64,000 nucleotides of DNA, taken from Alphaproteobacteria bacterium. GTDB lineage: Bacteria; Pseudomonadota; Alphaproteobacteria; UBA8366; GCA-2717185. Made by a program: the position numbers and the translations under genes. The stretch covers positions 105,368-169,367 of the forward strand of contig JBBDQU010000005.1 of the NCBI GenBank assembly GCA_040905865.1, given 5' to 3'. The notes beneath the pieces are model-generated. The model saw nothing but the letters and a program-made list of their open reading frames with translations, searched no databases and was not told where the DNA came from. Shown here piece after piece: positions 5,462-56,676 of the stretch; the stretch's first letter is position 1; every line of letters starts with the position of its first letter.

Positions 5462-6637
5462 TCAGGCGGTGAGGCCGGCCTCCAGCAACGGTCTGTTCTC
5501 CCTGACCCGCCGATAGGAGAAGCGGGTGAGATCGATGGTCTGGTAGCCGCCGTCGATGACCAGTTCCTTGATTGCGCGCCCGATGGCGGGCGCCTTCTGC
5601 AACCCTGCCCCTGAAAACCCGGTGGCGGTGATGAAGTTCTCCATCTCCCCCTCCCAGGGGCCGATGATGACGTTGCCGTCCAGCCGGTTCTGCGCGTAAT
5701 GGCCGGGCCAGGATCGGCCGAGCCTGATCGCCGCGAACTTCGGAACGCGGTGAGCCAACGATTCCCAGATTACCCGCTCGAAGAAATCCGGCACCATCTC
5801 CCAGTTCCAGCCGCCGGGTTCGTTCTTGTCGGTGAAGCCGGAGATGAAGCCCTTGCCCTCGGGCCGCACGCTCACGCCGGAATCGTCCCGGGTGGTGGGC
5901 AGCACTTCGAGCTCCTCGCGGCATTCGAAGAAAAAGGTCATGCGCCGCATCGGCTCGACCGGAATCTTCATGCCCACCATGGCGCAGATCTCCGAGGCCC
6001 AGGCGCCGGTCAGGTTCACGACGAAATCGGCGGCCAGCGTTTCGCCCGATTCCAGGGTGACGCCGCGCGCGAGGCCGCCGCTGTGCCCGACGCCGACGAC
6101 CCGGTCCTTGCGGTATTCCACGCCCAGGCTGGTCGCCTTCTTGCGGAAGCCGGTCAGCGCCGCATAGGGGTCAAGCGAACCGTCGTCGATCGCGTTCGCC
6201 GCGTTGATAACGTCGTCGGTGTTGAGCGACGGGAAGCGCGCCTTCACGGCACCCGCATCCAGCAGGTCGACCCGTGCGCCCTCGCGGGTCTGGATCTTCC
6301 AGGCGGATTCCAGGATCTCAGCCGATTCCGGCTTGGTTGCGATGTTCAGGTAGCCATGTCGGCGGAATCCCAGATGCGGCACCTCCCCGTCAACGGCCAT
6401 GAGGGTATCGAAATCGCCGTAGACTTGCTGACTGTAGAGGGCGAGTTGGATGTTCTCCGGCAGGGAATGCAACGACCGCACACCGCCCGAGGATCGGGGC
6501 GTGGCTGCAAACTCATATGTCGGGTCGGGCTCGATGACCGTGACGTCGGCGGCGGCGCCCGCCATCGCCAGGTGATAGGCCGCGCTGGAGCCCATGACTC
6601 CGCCGCCAACGATAATGATCCTTGCCATAGCGCTCAT
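5462..6637 (-). CDS. FAD-dependent oxidoreductase (DAO / sarcosine-oxidase-beta-like)
   Basis: N-terminal dinucleotide-binding motif RIIIVGGGVMGSSAAYHLA. 391 aa. Confidence 0.85.
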   Translation of the reverse strand: MSAMARIIIVGGGVMGSSAAYHLAMAGAAADVTVIEPDPTYEFAATPRSSGGVRSLHSLPENIQLALYSQQVYGDFDTLMAVDGEVPHLGFRRHGYLNIATKPESAEILESAWKIQTREGARVDLLDAGAVKARFPSLNTDDVINAANAIDDGSLDPYAALTGFRKKATSLGVEYRKDRVVGVGHSGGLARGVTLESGETLAADFVVNLTGAWASEICAMVGMKIPVEPMRRMTFFFECREELEVLPTTRDDSGVSVRPEGKGFISGFTDKNEPGGWNWEMVPDFFERVIWESLAHRVPKFAAIRLGRSWPGHYAQNRLDGNVIIGPWEGEMENFITATGFSGAGLQKAPAIGRAIKELVIDGGYQTIDLTRFSYRRVRENRPLLEAGLTA

Positions 6638-6972: not shown

Positions 6973-7494
6973 ATGAATGGAAAATTTATTCGATCGATGC
7001 ATGCCGGCGCGGTGATAGGGGCCATGATCGCATCTGTCGGCTCTATCGCGGCGGCCGCGGAAGAGGCGAGCGCCAGCTTGAAAGACAGGGACGGCAAGCC
7101 CGTCGGCGAGGTCAGGTTTGTGGAAACGCCAAATGGAACGCTGCTGCACGCGACCCTCAGGGGACTACCCGAAGGAACCCATGCCTTCCACGTCCATGAG
7201 GTAGGCAAGTGTGAACCGCCTTTCGAATCGGCAGGAGGGCATGCGAATCCAGAGGATACGGCCCATGGCCTTAAATCCGGAAGCGGCCCGCATGCCGGCG
7301 ACATGCCGAATATTCACGTTCCGTCATCGGGTGAACTTGAGGTAGAGGTTTACAACGAGCGCCTCCAATTCGACAATGCGTTGTTCGATTCGGACGGTGC
7401 TGCCGTTGTGATCCATGCTGGCGCCGATGACTACGAAACCGACCCCGCCGGTGCGGCAGGAAATCGGATAGCCTGTGGCGTAATCGAGCGTTAA
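6973..7494 (+). CDS. sodC: Cu/Zn superoxide dismutase, periplasmic
   Basis: Signal-peptide-like N-terminus. HAFHVHEVGKC, GGHANP, GPHAGDMPN and VVIHAGADDYETDPAGAAGNRIACGVI motifs. Confidence 0.93.
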   Translation: MNGKFIRSMHAGAVIGAMIASVGSIAAAAEEASASLKDRDGKPVGEVRFVETPNGTLLHATLRGLPEGTHAFHVHEVGKCEPPFESAGGHANPEDTAHGLKSGSGPHAGDMPNIHVPSSGELEVEVYNERLQFDNALFDSDGAAVVIHAGADDYETDPAGAAGNRIACGVIER

Positions 7495-7611
7495 TGCCCC
7501 ATGCAGCCGGCGAACGGAATTCCTGATCGTCCCGCGACCTTTGTTTGGATAAAATACATGCCATAGGGAAAAGCGCAATCAGACCGTCGGGAAGGATGAA
7601 GGTAGTCGGGC

Positions 7612-8625
7612 ATGGATCCTGAAGCGGGGCGACAGACTCGATTGCTGAAACGGACCGACAATCTCGCCCGATTGCGTATCTGGCAGTCGCTGTTTGCGCT
7701 GGGCGCGATCGCAATCGCGGGGTATCTGCTTCACCGCGCGGTGGAACGCTACGGTATCGACGCCATTGTCGCATCCGTGCAGGGCTTCACCGCGGGGCAA
7801 CTCGTTCCGGTCGGGCTCTTCGCGGTGGCCAGCTATCTCTGCCTCACGGGCTTCGATGCCCTGGCGTTGCGCTATGTGCGGCAGGACGTTCCCTACCCAT
7901 ATGTTGCGATGACGTCTTTCACCAGTCTGTCGCTGGGTCATAATATCGGCTTCGCCGCCTTGAGCAGCGGTACGATCCGATTTCGCCTCTACTCGCGCTA
8001 CGGCCTGACGGCAGCGGATATCGCGCGGCTCATCGTTTTCTGCGGCGTTACCGTCGGCCTCGGCCTGATCACGCTGGCTGGTATCGTGCTGGCGGGCCGC
8101 GCGCAACTGGCGTCGGGGGCGCTTGGGGTGCCGACGGGGGTCGCGGTCCTGCTTGGCGCCGCCTGCATCTGCATCGCTGCTGGCTATGTCGCCGCGTGCC
8201 GTTTTATCCGGCGGCCGGTTTCCGTTCGCGGGTTTTCCCTGTCGCTGCCTTCGCCGGGTCTCGCGCTCGGCCAGATCCTCGTTGGAACGCTGAATTTCGC
8301 GCTGGTCGCCGGTTGCGTCCACCAGGCGATTGGTGTCGCGCACGACGTTCCCTATCTGGCGGTTGTGGCGGTGTATGTGCTTGCCAATCTCGTCGCCGTG
8401 ATCAGCCATGTGCCTGGCGGCCTGGGCGTCATCGAAAGCGTCGTGCTGACGCTGATACCCGGGGAGACGGTGCTTGGCGGTCTCATCGTCTTTCGGATCG
8501 CGTACTACTTCATTCCCCTGATTCTCGGGACAATAATTTTTGCCCTTTCGGAACTGGTGCGCTCGCGGCGCCGGAACGCGGTTAGAGCTGGCTCTCGTTC
8601 GGCAGGGTCGACAATAGGATCGTGA
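7612..8625 (+). CDS. YbhN/UPF0104-family integral membrane protein (lysylphosphatidylglycerol-synthase-type TM domain)
   Basis: 337 aa and highly hydrophobic with multiple predicted TM segments. It neighbours phospholipase-D and EEP-family genes, as in the E. coli ybhP-clsB-ybhN group. Confidence 0.7.
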   Translation: MDPEAGRQTRLLKRTDNLARLRIWQSLFALGAIAIAGYLLHRAVERYGIDAIVASVQGFTAGQLVPVGLFAVASYLCLTGFDALALRYVRQDVPYPYVAMTSFTSLSLGHNIGFAALSSGTIRFRLYSRYGLTAADIARLIVFCGVTVGLGLITLAGIVLAGRAQLASGALGVPTGVAVLLGAACICIAAGYVAACRFIRRPVSVRGFSLSLPSPGLALGQILVGTLNFALVAGCVHQAIGVAHDVPYLAVVAVYVLANLVAVISHVPGGLGVIESVVLTLIPGETVLGGLIVFRIAYYFIPLILGTIIFALSELVRSRRRNAVRAGSRSAGSTIGS

Positions 8626-10162
8626 TGAAGCCGCGCCACGAGGCAATGCCAGGCTCGGTCCTTTTCAGGCGCTTGCCGTCCTTCACTTCGCCGACCCAGA
8701 CGAGGTCGCCGTCCACCGCTTTCAACCGGTAGGCATTGTCCGGCTTCATGCCGTCCGTGATGAATTTTCGCACCTGTCCGGCGAGCCGCTCGTTGCGCAC
8801 GGCCAGCGCTATTTCCGTGTTAAGGCGGATCGAACGGGGGTCGAGGTTGAATGAGCCGATCAGGACAAGCTCGCCATCGATGACGGCGGCTTTGGTATGG
8901 AGGTTGGCGGCGGAGGTGGGCTTCAGCCAGTTCCAGTCTCGCTTCACGAACTCGGCATGCGGCCGCATCTCGAAAATTTCAACGCCGCAGGCCACGAGGT
9001 CCTCGCGGTATTTCCGATACCCGGCATAGGCAGTCAGCACATCGTTCGACAGGAACGAGTTGGTCAGGACTCGTACCTTGATACCCTCGTCGACCAACCC
9101 GCAAAGCCATTCCAGCCCCTTTTCGCCGGGGATAAGATAGGCCATCTCAAGCAGCAGTTCGTGCTGCAGGCTCACGTCGAGCATCGCTTCCATTTTCGTC
9201 AGGACATGGGATCGTTTCGTTTTCGCCTTGTTCGGCCTGTCGGCCAGCAGACGCGCGCTCTCGGTCCAGATCAGGCGCTCGAAGCGGGCGTCGACAAGAT
9301 CGCGCGCGGCGTCGATATCCTGCACCAGGTCATAGGGAGTGTCGCCGAACGCCACCGCTTCCCGCAGGGTCGCCTGCAGGGCGGAGACCGCGCCGTCGCC
9401 GTTCCCGTCCTCGTCGATATAGGCGATGGGAATGCTCCACTCGCTGTTCCAGAACCTGTCGAACGTCCGCGACGCCTCGCGCACGATCGGACCGGCGACA
9501 TACAGGTCGAGGTCGCGGTAGTTCGACTGATCGTCCACGGAGAAGTAGCGGTCGCCCACGTTGCGGCCGCCGATGACGGCGACGCTGTTGTCGGCGATGA
9601 AGGCCTTGTTGTGCATCCGGTGCGTGATGCGCTGGAAGTCGAACAGGATGTCCAGCAGGCCGGCATCGCGGTTCTCGAACGGGTTAAAGATGCATATTTC
9701 GATGTTCGGATGAGCGCTGAGTTTCCGGAGTTCGTCATCCTCCCAGGCGATGTCCATGTCGTCCAGCAACAGGCGGACGCGGACGCCGCGGTCGGCGGCG
9801 GCGATCACTTCCGCCATGAGGAGCCTGCCGGTGCGGTTGGCGCGCCAGATGTAGTATTGCAGATCAAGCGTCTTCCTGGACAGGCGGACCAGGGCGACGA
9901 TTGCCTGGAAGGCATCCCTTCCGGAGGTGAGCAACTCGAATCCCGACGCTCCCTGGTTCATCCCGGAGGCCCTCGCCACGGATTTGCCGAGCGGGGTCGA
10001 TTCCGGCTGCTCAAGCGCGAAACTCTTAACGCGGGGGCCCGTTTCGGGGACCTCGGCGCCAGAACAGCCCGGCAGGCTCGCCATAGCGAACATGCCCAGC
10101 GCCAAACAGACACCTGTGGCCAGACGGTGGGACGTCCTTACCCTGTGGCAACGCTTTTTCAT
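8582..10162 (-). CDS. phospholipase D family protein (cardiolipin-synthase-like), probable lipoprotein
   Basis: Two HKD motifs (HRMHNKAFIADNSVAVIGGRNVGDRY and LHTKAAVIDGELVLIGSFNLDPRS). I prefer the ATG at 10162, which has an AGGA 5 nt upstream and gives MKKRCH...ASLPGCSG with a lipobox. The ORF track start is 10252. Confidence 0.88.
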   Translation of the reverse strand: MKKRCHRVRTSHRLATGVCLALGMFAMASLPGCSGAEVPETGPRVKSFALEQPESTPLGKSVARASGMNQGASGFELLTSGRDAFQAIVALVRLSRKTLDLQYYIWRANRTGRLLMAEVIAAADRGVRVRLLLDDMDIAWEDDELRKLSAHPNIEICIFNPFENRDAGLLDILFDFQRITHRMHNKAFIADNSVAVIGGRNVGDRYFSVDDQSNYRDLDLYVAGPIVREASRTFDRFWNSEWSIPIAYIDEDGNGDGAVSALQATLREAVAFGDTPYDLVQDIDAARDLVDARFERLIWTESARLLADRPNKAKTKRSHVLTKMEAMLDVSLQHELLLEMAYLIPGEKGLEWLCGLVDEGIKVRVLTNSFLSNDVLTAYAGYRKYREDLVACGVEIFEMRPHAEFVKRDWNWLKPTSAANLHTKAAVIDGELVLIGSFNLDPRSIRLNTEIALAVRNERLAGQVRKFITDGMKPDNAYRLKAVDGDLVWVGEVKDGKRLKRTEPGIASWRGFITILLSTLPNESQL

Positions 10163-10381
10163 GGAGTCCTGTCGGTTGTTGCTCAGTAAAAGCGCTTGGC
10201 CAACACATGAACGGTAAAAAGGACTCATTTGTTCCGAAGGGGCCGAAATCAATCGTGGCGATGTGCACAGCCCTTATGGCGGGTAAACGGGTGCAGCTGG
10301 TGCTTTCGCTGACAAAAGTGCAGGATCGTGGCAGGGTGCGGCGGGTGTTCGACGCGTATTATGTAGGGGGATAGAGGGCCG

Positions 10382-11248
10382 ATGACGAATCTCGTCAGTT
10401 ACAATATTCAATACGGAACCGGTAGGGACCGGCGTGTCGATATCGATCGCATCGTCGGCGAAATCGGCGATGCCGACATCGTCGCGATGCAGGAAGTCGA
10501 CCGCTTCTGGACCCGGTCAGGAATGTGCGATCAGGCTCAGGCAATCGCCGAACGGATGCCGGAACATCACTGGGTTTATGGGCCCGGTATCGATCTGGAC
10601 GCGAGCATTCGCGACGCCGATGGCCGATTGCACAACCGCCGCCGTCAGTTTGGCAACATGCTGCTCTCGCGCTATCCGATACTGTCGTCCCGCAACCATC
10701 TGCTGCCGAAACACGGTCTGGTCACGCAGGTCAGCATGCAGCGGGCGGCATTGGACGCGGTGATTGCATGTCCGGGCGGTCCGGTCCGGATTGCGTCGGT
10801 ACATCTCGCGCATTCCTCGCCGGCAGAGCGGCTGGCCCAGGTGCAGCGGCTGCGCGAGCTGCAGCGGGAAGCGGCTTATGACGGCGGCGTCCTCTCCGGG
10901 ACGGGACCCAACTGGCGCGAGGCAGGATTGCCGACGCCCATGCCGCGCGATTCCATCCTGCTGGGCGATTTCAACATGACCCCGGACGACCCCGCCTATA
11001 CGGCGATGGCGGGACCTGACGATCCGAATTACGGCCGTGTCACGACGTTTGACGGCTATCTGGACGCCTGGTTGCACGCCGGCGGCGCGCCCGATGGCGG
11101 ACACACCAGGTTCGAGGAAACCCGGATCCGCCGCATCGACTATGCCTTTGTCAGCCCCGGCCTTGCGGACCGCGTCCGCGGCGTTCGCGTGGATGAGGTG
11201 GCGGACGGCTCAGACCATCAGCCGCTCTGGCTGGATATCGACCTTTGA
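10382..11248 (+). CDS. endonuclease/exonuclease/phosphatase (EEP) family protein, YbhP-like
   Basis: N-terminal SYNIQYG and MQEV motifs. C-terminal GSDHQPLWLDI is typical of the EEP fold. Confidence 0.85.
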   Translation: MTNLVSYNIQYGTGRDRRVDIDRIVGEIGDADIVAMQEVDRFWTRSGMCDQAQAIAERMPEHHWVYGPGIDLDASIRDADGRLHNRRRQFGNMLLSRYPILSSRNHLLPKHGLVTQVSMQRAALDAVIACPGGPVRIASVHLAHSSPAERLAQVQRLRELQREAAYDGGVLSGTGPNWREAGLPTPMPRDSILLGDFNMTPDDPAYTAMAGPDDPNYGRVTTFDGYLDAWLHAGGAPDGGHTRFEETRIRRIDYAFVSPGLADRVRGVRVDEVADGSDHQPLWLDIDL

Positions 11249-49862: not shown

Positions 49863-50345
49863 TCAGGATTTGAAGAATGGCCGGGCGGATTTGATCGTTC
49901 GGTTGTGGTTGCGGAATACGAGGCGTCGTCGCGGAAGCATGGCGCCGGATTGACCGCGCGGACGCGTGTTCGCCGCCGGCGCGCGGGCCTCGCAGAGGGC
50001 AGCGGCGCGCGGCCGCAAATCGACGACGCCGTCGGGACAGATCTTTTCGAGGTACCGGGCGCTGATCGGCCGGTTCAGTTCGAACACGGCATGGATATTC
50101 TCAATGCCGAAGGTGGCGGCGCATTTGACCGCCCATTTCAGCGTATTTTCAAAACGTTGCGAGTCGCTTTCCATATTGCGCCGAAAGCTGACCAGTTGCT
50201 CGCCCACGCGATAGCTGCAACTCGCGACGGTAATGATGCCTTCGGGTTCTCCGTCTGGGTCGAACGCGCGGCCCGTAAAGACAAAAACATGATCCCCCAG
50301 GTCCGCAGGAAGGCAATTCATATGATTGTACAAGGTTACGATCAT
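49863..50345 (-). CDS. hypothetical small protein, paralogue 1 of a divergent pair
   Basis: The ATG at 50345 has GAGGAA upstream. The core ..GIITVASCSYRVGEQLVSFRRNMESDSQRFENTLKWAVKCAATFGIENIHAVF.. is homologous to ORF 50702-50971. The extra Arg/Ala/Pro-rich tail of about 65 aa may not be genuine. Confidence 0.6.
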   Translation of the reverse strand: MIVTLYNHMNCLPADLGDHVFVFTGRAFDPDGEPEGIITVASCSYRVGEQLVSFRRNMESDSQRFENTLKWAVKCAATFGIENIHAVFELNRPISARYLEKICPDGVVDLRPRAAALCEARAPAANTRPRGQSGAMLPRRRLVFRNHNRTIKSARPFFKS

Positions 50346-50701
50346 GTTGCAATTTTCCTCTGGTATATACCAAGCAATAACCAAAACTTATCTAAGTAAC
50401 AAATATTTTTTATTAATTTAAAATAAGTTAATAGGTATATTTATTTCATTTAAATTAATGAAAAATATTAAATCGAATTTCAACTAAATATACTGAAAAT
50501 TTCGTGGCACATGTCGGAAGATCGTGCCCATTTCTGGTCGGGCGGCGGATGTACGGCGTACCGAACGGCACCGGTCTGAGAGGCCCGCAAGAGGCGCCTG
50601 CCGGGTTTACCGTTAACAGTCGGTTAACGCTTTTTAGCGATCTTCCGGCTTGTGTCGGCTGCGTCCCGACACTGCTGTGTCAATGATCTGTGAGGGGTGG
50701 A

Positions 50702-50971
50702 ATGGAAATACATCTGGTCGATCCAGCCACCGGATTTCCCGGCGATTCAGGGAACCATATCCGGGTACTGACGGTGCCGCATCCTGTCGATCCCAGGAAA
50801 ATCGTCACCAATGTCATTTGCCGTTACCGGCTGGCGGGCGGCGAGATATCGTTTCAGAAGAACCCGTTCGATTCCGACGAAAGCTTCGAGGACGCACTGA
50901 ATTGGGCGAAGTCCTTCGCGCGCGTATACGGCATCGGCGATATTTACGCGGCAAATTTCGCCCGCCGCTGA
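50702..50971 (+). CDS. hypothetical small protein, paralogue 2 of a divergent pair
   Basis: The ATG at 50702 has GAGGGGTGG upstream. ..KIVTNVICRYRLAGGEISFQKNPFDSDESFEDALNWAKSFARVYGIGDIYAANF... Confidence 0.6.
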   Translation: MEIHLVDPATGFPGDSGNHIRVLTVPHPVDPRKIVTNVICRYRLAGGEISFQKNPFDSDESFEDALNWAKSFARVYGIGDIYAANFARR

Positions 50972-50978
50972 GCGGAGT

Positions 50979-52247
50979 TCAGGCGAAGACGGCCTGCTGC
51001 CTCGTTCGCAGAATAAGGCTTCCGATAATCGCCAGGTTCCCGACATTGAAAGCCGCGCCAATCAGGAATGCCGTATCGTACGAACCGGTCAGGTCGAAAA
51101 CATAACCGCCGACCCAGGCGCCCAGCGCCATGCCGCCGCCGGCGCACAGGATGACAATCCCGGTCCGCCTTCCGGCTTCCGATGCCGGCAGGAATTCGCG
51201 GATGATAACGGGATAAAGGGGTAAGATGCCGCCATACCCCAGTCCGAACAGCGCCGCGATAATATAGATGGCGGTGAGGCTGTCCACGAATGCCAGCGTG
51301 GCGAGGAACAACGCCTGCGCGGAGGAAAATATGAAAATCGCCCGTAAACCGCCGAGCCGGCGGCCCAGGAAACCGACGCCGAAGAAGCTGCTCACTGCCG
51401 CACATGCCAGCATGATCGACAGGACTTCCGCGCCGCGCGCCGGAGAATAGCCGAGGTCGCTGACATGCGATACCACGTGGCCCAGGGGCAGCGACATGGC
51501 GATGCAACACCCGATCGACGCAATGGACAATGTCACCTGCATTGCGCGCGGTGACAGGGGCGCACGCGGCGCCGGGGCGGTGTGTCCTGGTTCGGCGGGG
51601 CCGGAAGCCCTCGGTGCGGCAGGCGCCAGTGCCGCCAGCGCCGCCGGCGGTTTCTGGCGCAGCACGAGAACCAGCGGCAGCATCGTGCCCAGCGCGAACA
51701 CGCCGTACCAGAATGAGGTCTGCCGCCAGCCGATTGTGTCATTGAAGTACTGGAATATCGGCGGCCAGATGGCGCCGGACAACGCCTGTCCCGAGCCCAG
51801 CATGCCGGCGGCCATGCTCTTGTTGTGCTCAAACCAGCGGGTAATATTGGCCATCAGCGGTGAGAACAGCGCGGAGCGGCCGAGGAAGCCCATCAGCACG
51901 CCGTAGATAAAGTAAAGTTCCCATTCATTCGTCACGATACTGGTCAGCATGGCGCCGATGCCGATCATTACGGCGCCGGTTACCGCCGGCATGGTCATGC
52001 CGGTCCGGTCCAGCCAGTACCCCATGAAGACGCCGCCGATGCCCGCGCCGAAATACTGCAGGGAATAGGCAAGCGACGGCACGGCGCGCGGCCAGTCGAA
52101 TTCGGCACTGATCAGTTTGAGGGCGACGACCAGGAAATAAACGCTGCCGGTACCGATGAGCATGAATAGCAGCGACGCCCCCAGGACGACGTTTCGTTTC
52201 ATGGCGGCGCGTTTCAATGCGGCGCGTTCTGATGACGAATCTGGCAT
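50979..52247 (-). CDS. MFS transporter
   Basis: About 12 hydrophobic segments. I prefer the ATG at 52247 (AGGAAAG 6 nt upstream) over the TTG at 52277. Confidence 0.85.
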   Translation of the reverse strand: MPDSSSERAALKRAAMKRNVVLGASLLFMLIGTGSVYFLVVALKLISAEFDWPRAVPSLAYSLQYFGAGIGGVFMGYWLDRTGMTMPAVTGAVMIGIGAMLTSIVTNEWELYFIYGVLMGFLGRSALFSPLMANITRWFEHNKSMAAGMLGSGQALSGAIWPPIFQYFNDTIGWRQTSFWYGVFALGTMLPLVLVLRQKPPAALAALAPAAPRASGPAEPGHTAPAPRAPLSPRAMQVTLSIASIGCCIAMSLPLGHVVSHVSDLGYSPARGAEVLSIMLACAAVSSFFGVGFLGRRLGGLRAIFIFSSAQALFLATLAFVDSLTAIYIIAALFGLGYGGILPLYPVIIREFLPASEAGRRTGIVILCAGGGMALGAWVGGYVFDLTGSYDTAFLIGAAFNVGNLAIIGSLILRTRQQAVFA

Positions 52248-52404
52248 TCGGCTTTCCTGTTCCTTAACCGAATACAACTTAAATCATGCCGCGTTTGACC
52301 GGGTGTGGGTGACGGTGGCCGCAACTGCGATTTGAAGCTTGAATGCGGGTGCAATTTATGACTAGTAATCATACTGTTACAGGGTAGGCAAGGGCCAGTT
52401 TAAA

Positions 52405-53583
52405 GTGGCGTTGGAGATTTCACGACAATATCTGAGGTTTGTCGATGACGAACTGATTCGTTTGTGGCGTCTCGGTCGCAACGCCATTGTCGCGTGGAGT
52501 CCCACGGATGAAGGCTTGGATGTTCTGGCGGTGCCGCAATACCTGCTGCCCAACCTTTTCAATAACCATGAGGAAATACTGGTCGGTGCGATGCAGCGCA
52601 GCAGCAAGGAACTGGCGCTGATTTCGGATATCTGTGAAATCGAACCGTACCGGATCGTCATTCCGCCGGCCATCCGCAGCAACAGCATCGGCACGCGGGC
52701 GCTGGAATACCTGACCCGGCGTTTTGGCATTACCAAGCTTGCGAACAAGGCGGTCGTCCTTTTCGATATCGTGGGGTTTTCGCGGTATTCGCCGCTCGAA
52801 CAGGTTACGGCGCTGAACAGTCTGTCCTATTCCATCAACGTCGCCTATCAGCGGACGGTCGAGAACAAGCTGGATGTATCGCTGTGCCATTCGACGACAG
52901 GCGACGGTTTCTATGTCTGGAACCGGGCCGAGGGAGTCGATGCGAATATCGACCTATTCTGTTTTCTGATGCTCGTGCTCGCCGACAACTCGTTGGGGCA
53001 GCGCAAGGGGATTGCGACGACGGTCCCGGTATTGCGGACGGGATTTCATGTCGGTGACTGCTTTGAATATTTTCTGGCGGAAGGCGCCCGACCGGGCACC
53101 GGCAGCTATATCGTCGGTAACGCGACGATCCAACTGGCCCGGATGGTTGAAATTGCGCTGCAGAACCAGATTCTGATCGGTGACTTCAAAGTCACCTCAG
53201 GAGCCGGGGCAGGCGTGAATACGGACATGGAAAATTATGACGCGGTAGCCTTTCTGGAAAAGGCGCAGAAACGCCTGATTGAATTCAAGGATGTAAACCT
53301 GTCCCGGGAAAAAGTGTCCGGAATAAAGTGCTACCTGACCGGTCATGCCGAAGCCGGCGGGAAATTCAATATCTGCCGCTACCGGTTCAGCGACAAACAT
53401 AATTTTCAGCATTCCGTCTTCAATGCCAAGGTCAATGTCTATCGCGCGAATAACGAGCAGATCTTCCTCGGTCGGTTGACCAAGGATCTGACCGAATTTT
53501 CCGCCGATGAAATAATTCTTCGACCGGATGCCGTCGCCGGGCCGAGTGAGGTCGCGGTGCCGGTGCCGGGAACCGCGGAATAG
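52405..53583 (+). CDS. divergent class III nucleotidyl-cyclase-homology-domain protein with an unknown N-terminal domain of about 110 aa
   Basis: The by-eye alignment to cyclase motifs is AVVLFDIVGFS (metal Asp), TTGDGFYVWN (second Asp), LRTGFHVGDCFEY, and GNATIQLARMVEIA (Arg present; Asn position reads Gln). GTG start. GC is lower than in neighbours. Confidence 0.65.
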   Translation: MALEISRQYLRFVDDELIRLWRLGRNAIVAWSPTDEGLDVLAVPQYLLPNLFNNHEEILVGAMQRSSKELALISDICEIEPYRIVIPPAIRSNSIGTRALEYLTRRFGITKLANKAVVLFDIVGFSRYSPLEQVTALNSLSYSINVAYQRTVENKLDVSLCHSTTGDGFYVWNRAEGVDANIDLFCFLMLVLADNSLGQRKGIATTVPVLRTGFHVGDCFEYFLAEGARPGTGSYIVGNATIQLARMVEIALQNQILIGDFKVTSGAGAGVNTDMENYDAVAFLEKAQKRLIEFKDVNLSREKVSGIKCYLTGHAEAGGKFNICRYRFSDKHNFQHSVFNAKVNVYRANNEQIFLGRLTKDLTEFSADEIILRPDAVAGPSEVAVPVPGTAE

Positions 53584-53646: not shown

Positions 53647-54282
53647 GTGCGCCGGGTGGGGCCCTTCGCGCCGCTGACGGCGCAGGTACGGCGGCAGAGT
53701 CTCGATGCGATACTGGCAAGGGGGGAGGACGAAATCCGCGTATTCGTTTACGGCTCCCTCATGTGGGATGCGGCATACCGGAATTTTGACCGATCAAATG
53801 CATTATTGCCGGGGTACCGGCGCTCATTCTGCGTCTGGACAGCGCATGCCCGCGGGACTCCGGAATTACCGGGACTCGGTCTCGGGCTGCGCCGCGACGC
53901 GGGGGCGCGATGCGGTGGCGTTCTGATCCGGCTGTCGGCAGTCGCGCATCGCGAGATTCTGGAGGCGTTGTGGGAGCGTGAAATGTGGACCGGCGTCTAC
54001 GATCCCGAACGGGTCGCCATAATCACGGATGACGGCCCCGCGACCGCGCTGGCCTTCATTGTCAACCGGCGACACCCGCAATTTGCCGGCGACCTGGCGC
54101 CGGCGGAAGCCGCGCGCCATATTGCCCTGGCAGAGGGGGTATTCGGCACCTGCCGGGAGTATTTTTACGCGACGGAACGCGCCCTCCGGGATATCCCCGG
54201 GACGACCAAGGAATTTGCACTCCTGGGAAGGCTGGTGCGCCGGGAGGCTGCCCGAGCAGCGGGCGATGCGCCGTCAGGCTGA
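53647..54282 (+). CDS. ChaC-family gamma-glutamylcyclotransferase
   Basis: VFVYGSLMWD motif and about 210 aa, the typical ChaC size. Confidence 0.8.
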   Translation: MRRVGPFAPLTAQVRRQSLDAILARGEDEIRVFVYGSLMWDAAYRNFDRSNALLPGYRRSFCVWTAHARGTPELPGLGLGLRRDAGARCGGVLIRLSAVAHREILEALWEREMWTGVYDPERVAIITDDGPATALAFIVNRRHPQFAGDLAPAEAARHIALAEGVFGTCREYFYATERALRDIPGTTKEFALLGRLVRREAARAAGDAPSG

Positions 54283-54744
54283 CCGCTTGCGTCTTTGATC
54301 CGGACTTTTCGGCGTGCTATCCGCCAAAGGCGTGTCCTTGGCCAGCGCCTTGGCGAGATTGAACATCGATTTGCGGGTTTGCGGGTCATCGATTGAGCTG
54401 TAGGCGCGCAGAAGATCCACCGATACCGGTTCGAACAGCGCGTCTTCCGTTAATGTGCCAAGGTCGCCCGTCTCCCTGGCGTCGGGACTCGTCGCCTGCG
54501 CAATGTCGGCCGGGAGGTCGTCGAAAAAATAGGAAACAGGCACATCCAGAACTTCGCTCAGTTCGAAGAGCCGGCTGGCGCCGATCCGGTTGGCGCCGCG
54601 CTCGTACTTCTGGATCTGCTGAAACGTGAGTCCAATGGATTCGCCGAGCATCGTCTGGCTCAGCGACAGCATCTTGCGCCGGATGCGAAGGCGTTTGCCA
54701 ACATGTGTGTCAATGGGATGGAAAGACTTTCTGGAGGTGGTCAT
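54274..54744 (-). CDS. XRE-family helix-turn-helix transcriptional regulator
   Basis: ..HVGKRLRIRRKMLSLSQTMLGESIGLTFQQIQKYERGANRIGASRLFELSEVLDVPVSYFF.. (HTH_3). Confidence 0.88.
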   Translation of the reverse strand: MTTSRKSFHPIDTHVGKRLRIRRKMLSLSQTMLGESIGLTFQQIQKYERGANRIGASRLFELSEVLDVPVSYFFDDLPADIAQATSPDARETGDLGTLTEDALFEPVSVDLLRAYSSIDDPQTRKSMFNLAKALAKDTPLADSTPKSPDQRRKRSA

Positions 54745-55413: not shown

Positions 55414-56676
55414 GTGGCTGAGCGAAAACAACCCGGGCAGGCCTCGACCGGCATGCATCGCCTCTTGGATGAGGCGATGCAGCTCAGTAAGGCGCTGGAC
55501 GTCATCGTTGCCTCTCAGGGTAGCAGTTCGTCAGCCGTGGGGCCGCTTGTTCGGGAACTGTCGGCCATCCACCGTCTTCTCGCCGCCGGATACCGCGACG
55601 CCGACGAGACCGGCGCGGAATCGCCGCCGGGGGCCGGCCGTCCGGTCAACCCTGAAGTGGAGGAACTGAGCGGGCGGATCGCGCGCACTGATGAACGCCT
55701 CGACGCCATCAAGTCATCGGTGTTCCAGCTTATGGAACTGATCGAAAACAGGTCGCGTAACACGCCCCGGCCGAAAGCGGCATCGGCAACCCCGGAAACC
55801 ACCGGCGCGGGGAGATCCGCCACCGCCAAAAGCGACGCTGAGAAAACGGTGACGCGCGCGCAACTGAATCAGCTGAAAAGCCGCAACACCGAACTGGAAC
55901 GCGAAGTATCGCGCCATCGCGATGTGGAGGTCAGCCTGCTCACGACGATGCGGGATATCCGCGCGGCAAGCCAGGCGAAAAGCGAGTTCCTGGCGAATAT
56001 GAGCCACGAGTTGCGGACGCCGCTGAACGCGATCATTGGTTTCGCGGAAATCATGGAGTCGCAGCTGGTCGGGCCGCTGGGTTCCGAACAGTATGTCGGC
56101 TACGCCAAGGATGTGCGGGAAAGCGGCCAGTACCTACTGGAACTGATCAACGATATCCTCGACCTGTCCAAGATTGAATCGGGGCAGCTTGAATTCGTCG
56201 AGGACGTCGTCGACCTGCGCGATTCCGTCGAAGTCTGCATGCGAATGATCGCGGATCAGGCGGAAGAAGCCGGGCTGAAAACGAGCCTCGATATTGCAGC
56301 GGATATTCCGAACATGCGCGCAAATACGCGGATGATCCGCCAGATCTTGCTGAACCTGCTGTCCAATGCGGTCAAGTTCACGCCCTCCGGCGGTGAAATC
56401 GGCATTTCGCTTTTCCGGGAGGACAGAACCGGCGACATCATGGTCGTGGTCAAGGACAATGGAATCGGCATCGCCCAGCGGAACATCGCACGTGTCATGC
56501 GGCCTTTTGAACAGGTGGAAGGTACCGCACGCGATACGACCCATCGCGGCACCGGACTTGGCCTGCCCATGGCGAAGTCCCTCGTCGAACTGCATGGCGG
56601 CACCTTCACGCTGGATAGCGTCGTCGACGAGGGCACGACGATCACATTGCGCTTCCCCGCAAAGCGCGCCGCATGA
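55414..56676 (+). CDS. soluble sensor histidine kinase (coiled coil, HisKA, HATPase_c)
   Basis: H-box SEFLANMSHELRTPLNAIIGF. N, G1 and G2 boxes (LLNLLSNAVKFT, DNGIGI, GTGLGL). No TM segments. The start may be GTG 55414 or ATG 55453. Confidence 0.88.
   Translation: MAERKQPGQASTGMHRLLDEAMQLSKALDVIVASQGSSSSAVGPLVRELSAIHRLLAAGYRDADETGAESPPGAGRPVNPEVEELSGRIARTDERLDAIKSSVFQLMELIENRSRNTPRPKAASATPETTGAGRSATAKSDAEKTVTRAQLNQLKSRNTELEREVSRHRDVEVSLLTTMRDIRAASQAKSEFLANMSHELRTPLNAIIGFAEIMESQLVGPLGSEQYVGYAKDVRESGQYLLELINDILDLSKIESGQLEFVEDVVDLRDSVEVCMRMIADQAEEAGLKTSLDIAADIPNMRANTRMIRQILLNLLSNAVKFTPSGGEIGISLFREDRTGDIMVVVKDNGIGIAQRNIARVMRPFEQVEGTARDTTHRGTGLGLPMAKSLVELHGGTFTLDSVVDEGTTITLRFPAKRAA

Follow-up and report, generated by a model that had tools for sequence, protein, structure and literature searches.

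What would a protein with the catalytic residues of a class III nucleotidyl cyclase make, if the residues from which the product of such an enzyme is normally predicted have been replaced? The question is raised by a gene in a 64,000-nucleotide stretch (hereafter the window) of contig JBBDQU010000005.1, from assembly GCA_040905865.1 of an alphaproteobacterium. The gene occupies positions 52405..53583 of the forward strand and, judged from its open reading frame (ORF) and an alignment with homologues, encodes 392 amino acids from a GTG start, as had been proposed from the letters of the window without database searches (the sequence-only reading). We consider it probable that the gene represents a new, previously unnamed family of signal-transduction nucleotidyl cyclases, of ~365 amino acids and chromosomally inherited.

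The cyclase fold and its active-site residues

The full-length protein was modelled with AlphaFold2 on the basis of 43 aligned family sequences, giving a mean predicted local distance difference test score (pLDDT) of 88 and a predicted template modelling score (pTM) of 0.86. When the model was compared with the PDB using Foldseek, all of the top 50 matches were catalytic domains of class III adenylyl or guanylyl cyclases (probability 1.00; target template modelling score, TM-score, up to 0.72), including soluble guanylate cyclase, Cya2, CyaC, CyaB, Rv1625c, and mammalian adenylyl cyclase; amongst viral structures (BFVD) the significant matches are again cyclase domains, with GGDEF proteins ranking lower. 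The secondary structure elements of the model follow the canonical class III order, and the central ~200 residues are modelled in the class III nucleotidyl cyclase fold, with the core (residues ~109–315; 52729..53349, forward strand, as are all features of the gene given below) running from β1 to a ‘CYLTG’ strand according to the model, the Foldseek matches, and the profile alignment. Profile-profile alignment (hhalign) of a 206-sequence family profile with an alignment of four cyclases gave an E-value of ~1e-4 over 153–170 columns. This alignment needed both the family profile and the four-cyclase alignment; a single-sequence hhalign comparison with a cyclase encoded beside one family member (locus L005, described below) was not successful. 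The earlier proposal of a divergent class III cyclase-homology domain (CHD) protein is thus supported by the model and by its structural matches.

Active site residues were assigned from the profile-profile alignment with the four cyclases, and the assignments agree with the positions of the residues in the secondary structure elements of the model; conservation was counted over 206 family members, down to ~30% identity. D121, in the FDIVGF motif at the end of β1 (52765..52767), corresponds to the first metal-binding Asp and is an Asp in 200 of the 206 sequences. The second metal-binding Asp is D167 (199/206), which lies in the β2–β3 turn as the last residue of S163-T-T-G-D167 (52891..52905). 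R211, at the start of β4 (53035..53037; R/K in 201/206), corresponds to the Arg of the canonical ‘RxGxHxG’ motif, whilst R246 on helix α4 (198/206) is located at the position of the transition-state Arg. The two metal-binding Asp residues (FDIVGF and GDG) and the catalytic Arg recognised by the sequence-only reading are therefore D121, D167, and R246. The placing of these four residues is that of the bacterial class III adenylyl and guanylyl cyclases (PF00211; CyaC 1wc0, Cya2 2w01, CyaB 3r5g, Rv1625c), with which the family shares fold, element order and a ‘GQILIG’ β6 strand; in both, the catalytic module is also used together with receiver domains in signalling proteins.

The nucleoside pocket differs. 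The product of a class III cyclase is normally predicted from a Lys/Asp or a Glu/Cys pair. S163, four residues ahead of D167, occupies the base-specifying position of Lys in adenylyl and Glu in guanylyl cyclases and is Ser or Thr in 200 of the 206 members, as had been noticed for the Ser of this protein. The other pocket positions lie in the segment from Y235 to R246 (YIVGNATIQLAR; 53107..53142; profile alignment). Y235 on β5 is located where adenylyl cyclases have Asp and guanylyl cyclases Cys or Thr to contact the base (Y/F in 190/205). Neither the Lys/Asp (ATP) nor the Glu/Cys-type (GTP) pair is present, S/T163 and Y/F235 taking their place, and the absence of the purine-specifying Lys/Asp pair reported earlier is confirmed. 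The transition-state or ribose-contact Asn, which should precede the α4 Arg by four residues, was not found in the profile alignment of 205 members; this position is I242 (I/V in 196/205). The Gln which the sequence-only reading had placed there is residue 243, one position off.

The ‘CYLTG’ strand is inferred to correspond to the canonical ‘xxKG’ strand, with T312 replacing the phosphate-binding Lys. T312 is one of a further set of near-invariant residues, which also comprises Q133, W172 (206/206), N173, T241, Q255, D330-K331-H332, and N340/K342. When set against PF00211 enzymes, the family hence has Ser/Thr for Lys/Glu, Tyr/Phe for Asp/Cys/Thr, Ile/Val for Asn, and probably Thr for the ‘KG’ Lys; it also falls below any Pfam or NCBIfam threshold, and carries an obligatory N-terminal domain and a C-terminal extension, described in the next section.

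Because the residues required for the chemistry are near-invariant and the non-canonical pocket is equally fixed, the conservation pattern points to a specific activity under selection and not to decay, i.e. a predicted active enzyme with a specificity of its own rather than a pseudo-enzyme. A non-catalytic pseudo-cyclase, functioning as a nucleotide-binding sensor or scaffold, would be consistent with the loss of the Asn and of the canonical ‘KG’ Lys, with the presence of extra domains which could mediate protein–protein contacts, and with a module that can be fused to an enzyme (EAL, see below) as a regulatory domain would be. The near-invariance of the metal-binding Asp residues and of both Arg residues across such divergent members makes this quite unlikely in our view. 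Neither of the outcomes which the sequence-only reading had named as speaking against a cyclase is seen: the protein clearly does not fall outside the cyclase fold, nor have its homologues lost the catalytic residues.

An ordinary adenylyl or guanylyl cyclase, making cyclic AMP (cAMP) or cyclic GMP (cGMP) with non-canonical base-recognition residues, is a sub-case of an active signalling cyclase and merits more weight. The metal- and phosphate-binding residues are intact, and all of the closest structural matches are adenylyl or guanylyl cyclase domains. There is precedent in the mycobacterial proteins Rv1900c (Asn/His) and Rv0386 (Gln/Asn), class III domains without the Lys/Asp pair that are catalytically active and still make cAMP; these differ from the present family in their replacement residues, in being recognised by PF00211, and in having unrelated accessory domains. 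Here, all three nucleoside-contact residues are replaced: Lys by a hydroxyl residue, Asp by an aromatic, and Asn by an aliphatic one. The strict conservation of these replacements suggests a distinct, selected pocket; published pyrimidine cyclases likewise use bulky aromatics in the base pocket (PMC11224242). On balance, we regard the production of cAMP or cGMP by an otherwise ordinary cyclase as a possibility to be taken seriously, though not as the expected outcome.

Accessory domains and a proposed mechanism

The N-terminal domain (residues 1–108; 52405..52728) is modelled as a long helix, a β-hairpin, and further helices. When modelled alone it gave a pLDDT of 91 and a pTM of 0.82, consistent with a domain that folds by itself, and it is retained throughout the family, fusion proteins included. 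The sequence-only reading had left this region unassigned, and a dedicated fold search amongst PDB structures likewise revealed no significant relative (best E = 3, probability at most 0.07). What had been described as an insertion near the C-terminus consists of two parts. Residues 264–276 (53194..53232) do form a variable loop of low model confidence, as located by the alignment and the model, but the second part, residues 316–372 (53350..53520), is a conserved, family-specific β extension. It follows the ‘CYLTG’ strand as two strands and a helix, and contains the near-invariant D330-K331-H332 (DKHG motif) and N340/K342 (FNAKVN motif); K331 or K342 may have an active site role. The possibility that either terminal region is a cryptic cyclase repeat, forming a pseudo-heterodimer with the core, gave no signal on comparison and was rejected.

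By analogy with bacterial class III cyclases, the protein would most likely act as a head-to-tail homodimer. In the proposed mechanism, two divalent metal ions would be bound by D121 and D167 from one subunit and the triphosphate by R211, whilst the other subunit would supply R246 to stabilise the transition state as the ribose 3′-hydroxyl attacks the α-phosphate, giving pyrophosphate and a cyclic nucleotide. In place of Lys/Asp/Asn or Glu/Cys/Asn, the residues S/T163, Y/F235, and I/V242 would form the nucleoside pocket; because these residues differ, substrate and messenger are not predictable from the canonical rules, and the product may be a non-canonical nucleotide, or it may be cAMP or cGMP formed in an atypical pocket. 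Both the N-terminal domain and the DKHG/FNAKVN hairpin at the C-terminus are integral to the module and probably regulate or complete the active site, and the activity is probably tied into two-component and cyclic di-GMP (c-di-GMP) networks. In a bolder version, the family would make some non-canonical cyclic nucleotide (a cyclic pyrimidine, say) instead of cAMP or cGMP, as a widespread housekeeping messenger for everyday two-component and c-di-GMP-linked signalling in marine Proteobacteria and not for phage defence, with the N-terminal domain as regulatory input; this seems to us rather doubtful.

Several points weigh against a signalling cyclase. Scans of the query against Pfam, NCBIfam, and PADLOC gave no match at E-values up to 1; the query does not reach the PF00211 (Guanylate_cyc) threshold, and PF00211 is absent from the listed homologues. 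Searches of PDB sequences with phmmer and with the family profile returned nothing significant, so that the homology assignment is carried by a predicted structure together with one modest profile-profile score. The presence of Ile in place of Asn, and of T312 in place of the ‘KG’ Lys, could mean a different chemistry or low activity. In addition, no cyclic-nucleotide receptor was found linked to the gene, and the signalling neighbours described below, although frequent, are not universal and are of kinds that are commonplace in these genomes in any case.

Neither the fold nor the probable chemistry is new, whilst the family itself, with its particular pocket, N-terminal domain, and C-terminal motif, is new to the libraries and literature searched. 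If active, these proteins would constitute an unrecognised node in bacterial second-messenger networks, possibly employing a non-canonical messenger outside defence; were that so, they would add to what Pycsar systems have shown, namely that bacteria do use cyclic pyrimidines as signals. Should the product be plain cAMP, the family would still offer a new way of building the base pocket and a new regulatory domain.

Distribution, signalling fusions and the defence hypothesis

The gene was first described as an orphan. More than 2,400 homologues were, however, retrieved by each of two word-index searches, and in an exhaustive HMMER scan covering 1.84 billion cluster representatives the family comprised 341 clusters (50% identity), almost all of which span the whole ~365-residue module; in a scan using one genome per species, relatives were present in at least 591 genomes. 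The carriers are mostly marine or sediment bacteria: Rhodospirillales and other Alphaproteobacteria, Woeseiaceae, Chromatiales and other Gammaproteobacteria, and some Desulfobacterales. Those cultured or named include Lentisalinibacter orientalis, Thalassobaculum sp., and Caenispirillum bisanense. The homologues are named in databases either ‘hypothetical protein’ or after a fused EAL domain alone, and literature searches found no description of this cyclase-like family. A large family, drawn mostly from abundant marine-sediment lineages (Woeseiaceae, Rhodospirillales), has been missed by every profile library tried; it merits a Pfam or NCBIfam model and, being widely distributed and amenable to experiment, would repay study in second-messenger research.

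The family is chromosomal and vertically inherited. When the protein was compared by tblastn with 50,697 phage and 72,556 plasmid records, nothing matched, and IMG/VR viral contigs contained no relative; a mobile or viral origin was ruled out on these grounds.

Domain fusions are the strongest functional clue. Amongst the 120 closest clusters, nine (P0031, P0033, P0035, P0036, P0047, P0049, P0051, P0052, and P0061) have a receiver (REC) domain C-terminal to the module, whereas P0132 has an N-terminal receiver domain (REC-module). The order REC-EAL-module occurs in P0150 and P0160, EAL-module in P0269 and P0270, and a truncated EAL-module in P0145. The fused EAL domains keep the EAL, ELTE, DDFGTG, KID, and EGVE/DGVE motifs and, because of this, are probably active c-di-GMP phosphodiesterases. 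Signalling genes also occur beside family members: PAS-HisKA-HATPase(-REC) kinases lie on both sides of the gene at locus L087, a histidine kinase is adjacent at L055, a REC-HD-GYP protein is encoded at L048, REC and Hpt genes are located upstream at L005, and REC-GGDEF(-EAL) genes lie nearby at L003 and L011. Given the REC and EAL fusions, the module behaves as a domain that serves two-component and c-di-GMP circuits as output or partner.

Two of these loci show further features. At L005, a 1,106-residue Guanylate_cyc (PF00211)-AAA_16-TPR protein (7271-10591, forward strand) is encoded directly downstream of a member 45% identical to the query, so that a canonical and a non-canonical cyclase are found side by side in that metagenome-assembled genome (MAG). 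At L011, a short EAL fragment (5802-6047, forward strand) lies upstream of the module-REC gene P0036 and overlaps its start (6001); this could represent a frameshifted or mis-called EAL-module-REC protein.

The association with EAL domains bears on another explanation, namely that the module synthesises di- or oligonucleotides, as GGDEF or Cas10-palm enzymes do, or otherwise acts on nucleotides of the c-di-GMP pathway such as pGpG. Such an activity would explain both the GGDEF-like ‘TGDGF’ motif and the EAL fusions, which recur as EAL-module or REC-EAL-module in at least five clusters, and the REC-HD-GYP neighbour and nearby REC-GGDEF(-EAL) genes would be in keeping with it. GGDEF diguanylate cyclases (PF00990) resemble the family in their related palm-like fold, in their acidic hairpin (TGDGF versus GGDEF), and in their association with EAL, HD-GYP, and REC domains; the family core aligned with two GGDEF domains at an hhalign E-value of 0.04, compared with 0.2 for canonical CHDs. 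Structure and profile comparisons nonetheless place adenylyl and guanylyl cyclase domains well ahead of GGDEF. The Pfam scan gave no PF00990 match for the query, which has FDIVGFS and TGDGF instead; the first metal-binding motif, FDIVGFS, is of the cyclase type, not ‘DxDxFKxxND’, the I-site is lacking, and R246 on helix α4 is a cyclase hallmark. The EAL fusions are also a small minority, in which EAL precedes the module, the reverse of the usual GGDEF-EAL order. We therefore consider a GGDEF- or Cas10-like activity unlikely.

A different role, in anti-phage defence, had been suggested by the sequence-only reading on the precedent of Pycsar systems, in which infection would lead to synthesis of cyclic CMP or cyclic UMP (cCMP/cUMP) and hence to activation of an effector. 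The Pycsar cyclases (PycC, clades A–E) do resemble the family in having a class III-type fold and a non-purine-type pocket that includes aromatic residues; clade D and E enzymes have Phe residues in the base pocket, and some PycC enzymes have extra C-terminal β structures near the active site (PMC11224242). In Pycsar systems, however, a gene for a PycTM or PycTIR effector, which contains a cyclic-nucleotide-binding domain (CNBD), adjoins the cyclase gene (PMC11224242), whereas no adjacent transmembrane (TM), TIR, or CNBD effector was found in the window or at more than 90 homologous loci. That no TM or TIR effector follows the gene had been correctly noted; its neighbours in the window encode MFS, ChaC, and HTH_3 proteins. 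The PADLOC PycC models gave no match at E-values up to 1, family genes are surrounded by genes of housekeeping, metabolism, or signalling in a synteny that is vertical and deep, the fusions are to REC and EAL rather than to defence domains, and, as described above, the family is absent from phages, plasmids, and viral contigs. Neither a conserved partner nor a defence-island context was thus found, an outcome which the sequence-only reading had itself named as speaking against defence. The Pycsar hypothesis fails every context test and is largely refuted; we regard it as most improbable.

Gene start, composition and neighbourhood

In its NCBI record (MEX2614792.1, ‘hypothetical protein’), this same protein begins at TTG 52516 and comprises 355 residues. 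That start drops 37 conserved N-terminal residues, including W21, G24, and W31, which are invariant in homologues; GTG 52405 is for this reason the better start, and the start of MEX2614792.1 appears to be mis-annotated.

As stated in the sequence-only reading, the gene is compositionally distinct, with a GC content of 0.551 compared with 0.611 for the window and 0.62–0.66 for the flanking genes; its GC at third codon positions (GC3) is 0.68, that of its neighbours 0.71–0.83. Lower GC is, however, a mild trait of the whole family, being below that of the flanks at 75 of 84 family loci (median difference -2.5 points). Since the whole family shares the dip, and related MAGs carry the gene in synteny, recent horizontal transfer was rejected as its cause and the gene is not a recent foreign insertion.

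The gene immediately downstream, at a distance of 63 nucleotides (53647..54282, forward strand), encodes a ChaC-like gamma-glutamylcyclotransferase (PF04752, 2e-27), as had been recognised from the letters of the window. It is followed on the reverse strand by a gene for an HTH_3 (XRE-type) regulator (54274..54744; Pfam), and the divergent upstream neighbour encodes an MFS transporter (50979..52277, reverse strand; Pfam). A possible signalling link to the gene is a soluble HisKA-HATPase histidine kinase encoded 1.8 kb downstream (55414..56676, forward strand), which the closest relatives retain. The wider region of the window contains genes for PEP-mutase-like, MaoC, HpcH lyase, HisKA-HATPase kinase, and NAD-binding/ureidoglycolate-lyase proteins, and no mobile or defence genes.

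How far these linkages extend was surveyed at 93 loci, with 2,801 flanking ORFs that were clustered. ChaC and HTH_3 are found downstream only in relatives of at least 68% identity, and MFS upstream only at 59% identity or above. As the linkage of ChaC is lost below ~68% identity, ChaC was ruled out as a functional partner, a role for which it had been a candidate. No universal neighbour emerged either: the clusters of flanking ORFs show lineage synteny only, and the sole large ones reflect vertical synteny inside the Woeseiaceae, with PALP, FAD-oxidase, and Ser/Thr kinase/ABC1 genes upstream and a 151-residue ORF, MerR, IHF, and pheT/pheS downstream. The comparison of homologous neighbourhoods that had been proposed as a check thus revealed neither a recurrent effector nor a family-wide ChaC linkage, whilst signalling genes do recur. 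Other immediate neighbours vary, and include TPR proteins (L021, L024, L009), an MR_MLE enzyme, an acyl-CoA ligase, and an AI-2E transporter.

Two small ORFs beyond the MFS gene, orf173 (49863-50384, reverse strand) and orf93 (50690-50971, forward strand), encode paralogous proteins of 173 and 93 residues, ~31% identical and with no Pfam match. They flank a divergent intergenic region of low GC (~0.45), and at L003, L004, and L015 one copy of the orf93/orf173 type lies 128 nucleotides upstream of the family gene on the same strand. An iterated profile search found both only in the close clade (at least 59% identity), and this type was accordingly rejected as a hidden partner of the whole family.

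At 11 Woeseiaceae-type loci (39–42% identity), a clustered ORF on the same strand lies at a median of 51 nucleotides downstream of the gene and may encode a clade-specific partner; at L006 the 151-residue ORF (7306-7761, forward strand) is on the same strand, 58 nucleotides downstream, with no Pfam or NCBIfam match.

A member 41% identical to the query, on a 1.7 kb contig (L039; CAYFIY010000095.1), is binned in a ‘Candidatus Hadarchaeota archaeon’ MAG, an archaeal occurrence that is probably a binning artefact. Two separate contigs of one MAG (8_1_July_SF_Bin65; L056 and L077) each carry a family member, so that paralogues may coexist in one genome. Finally, a DUF2336 protein is encoded near the family gene at two distantly related alphaproteobacterial loci (L005, 696-1823; L068, 9201-10343).

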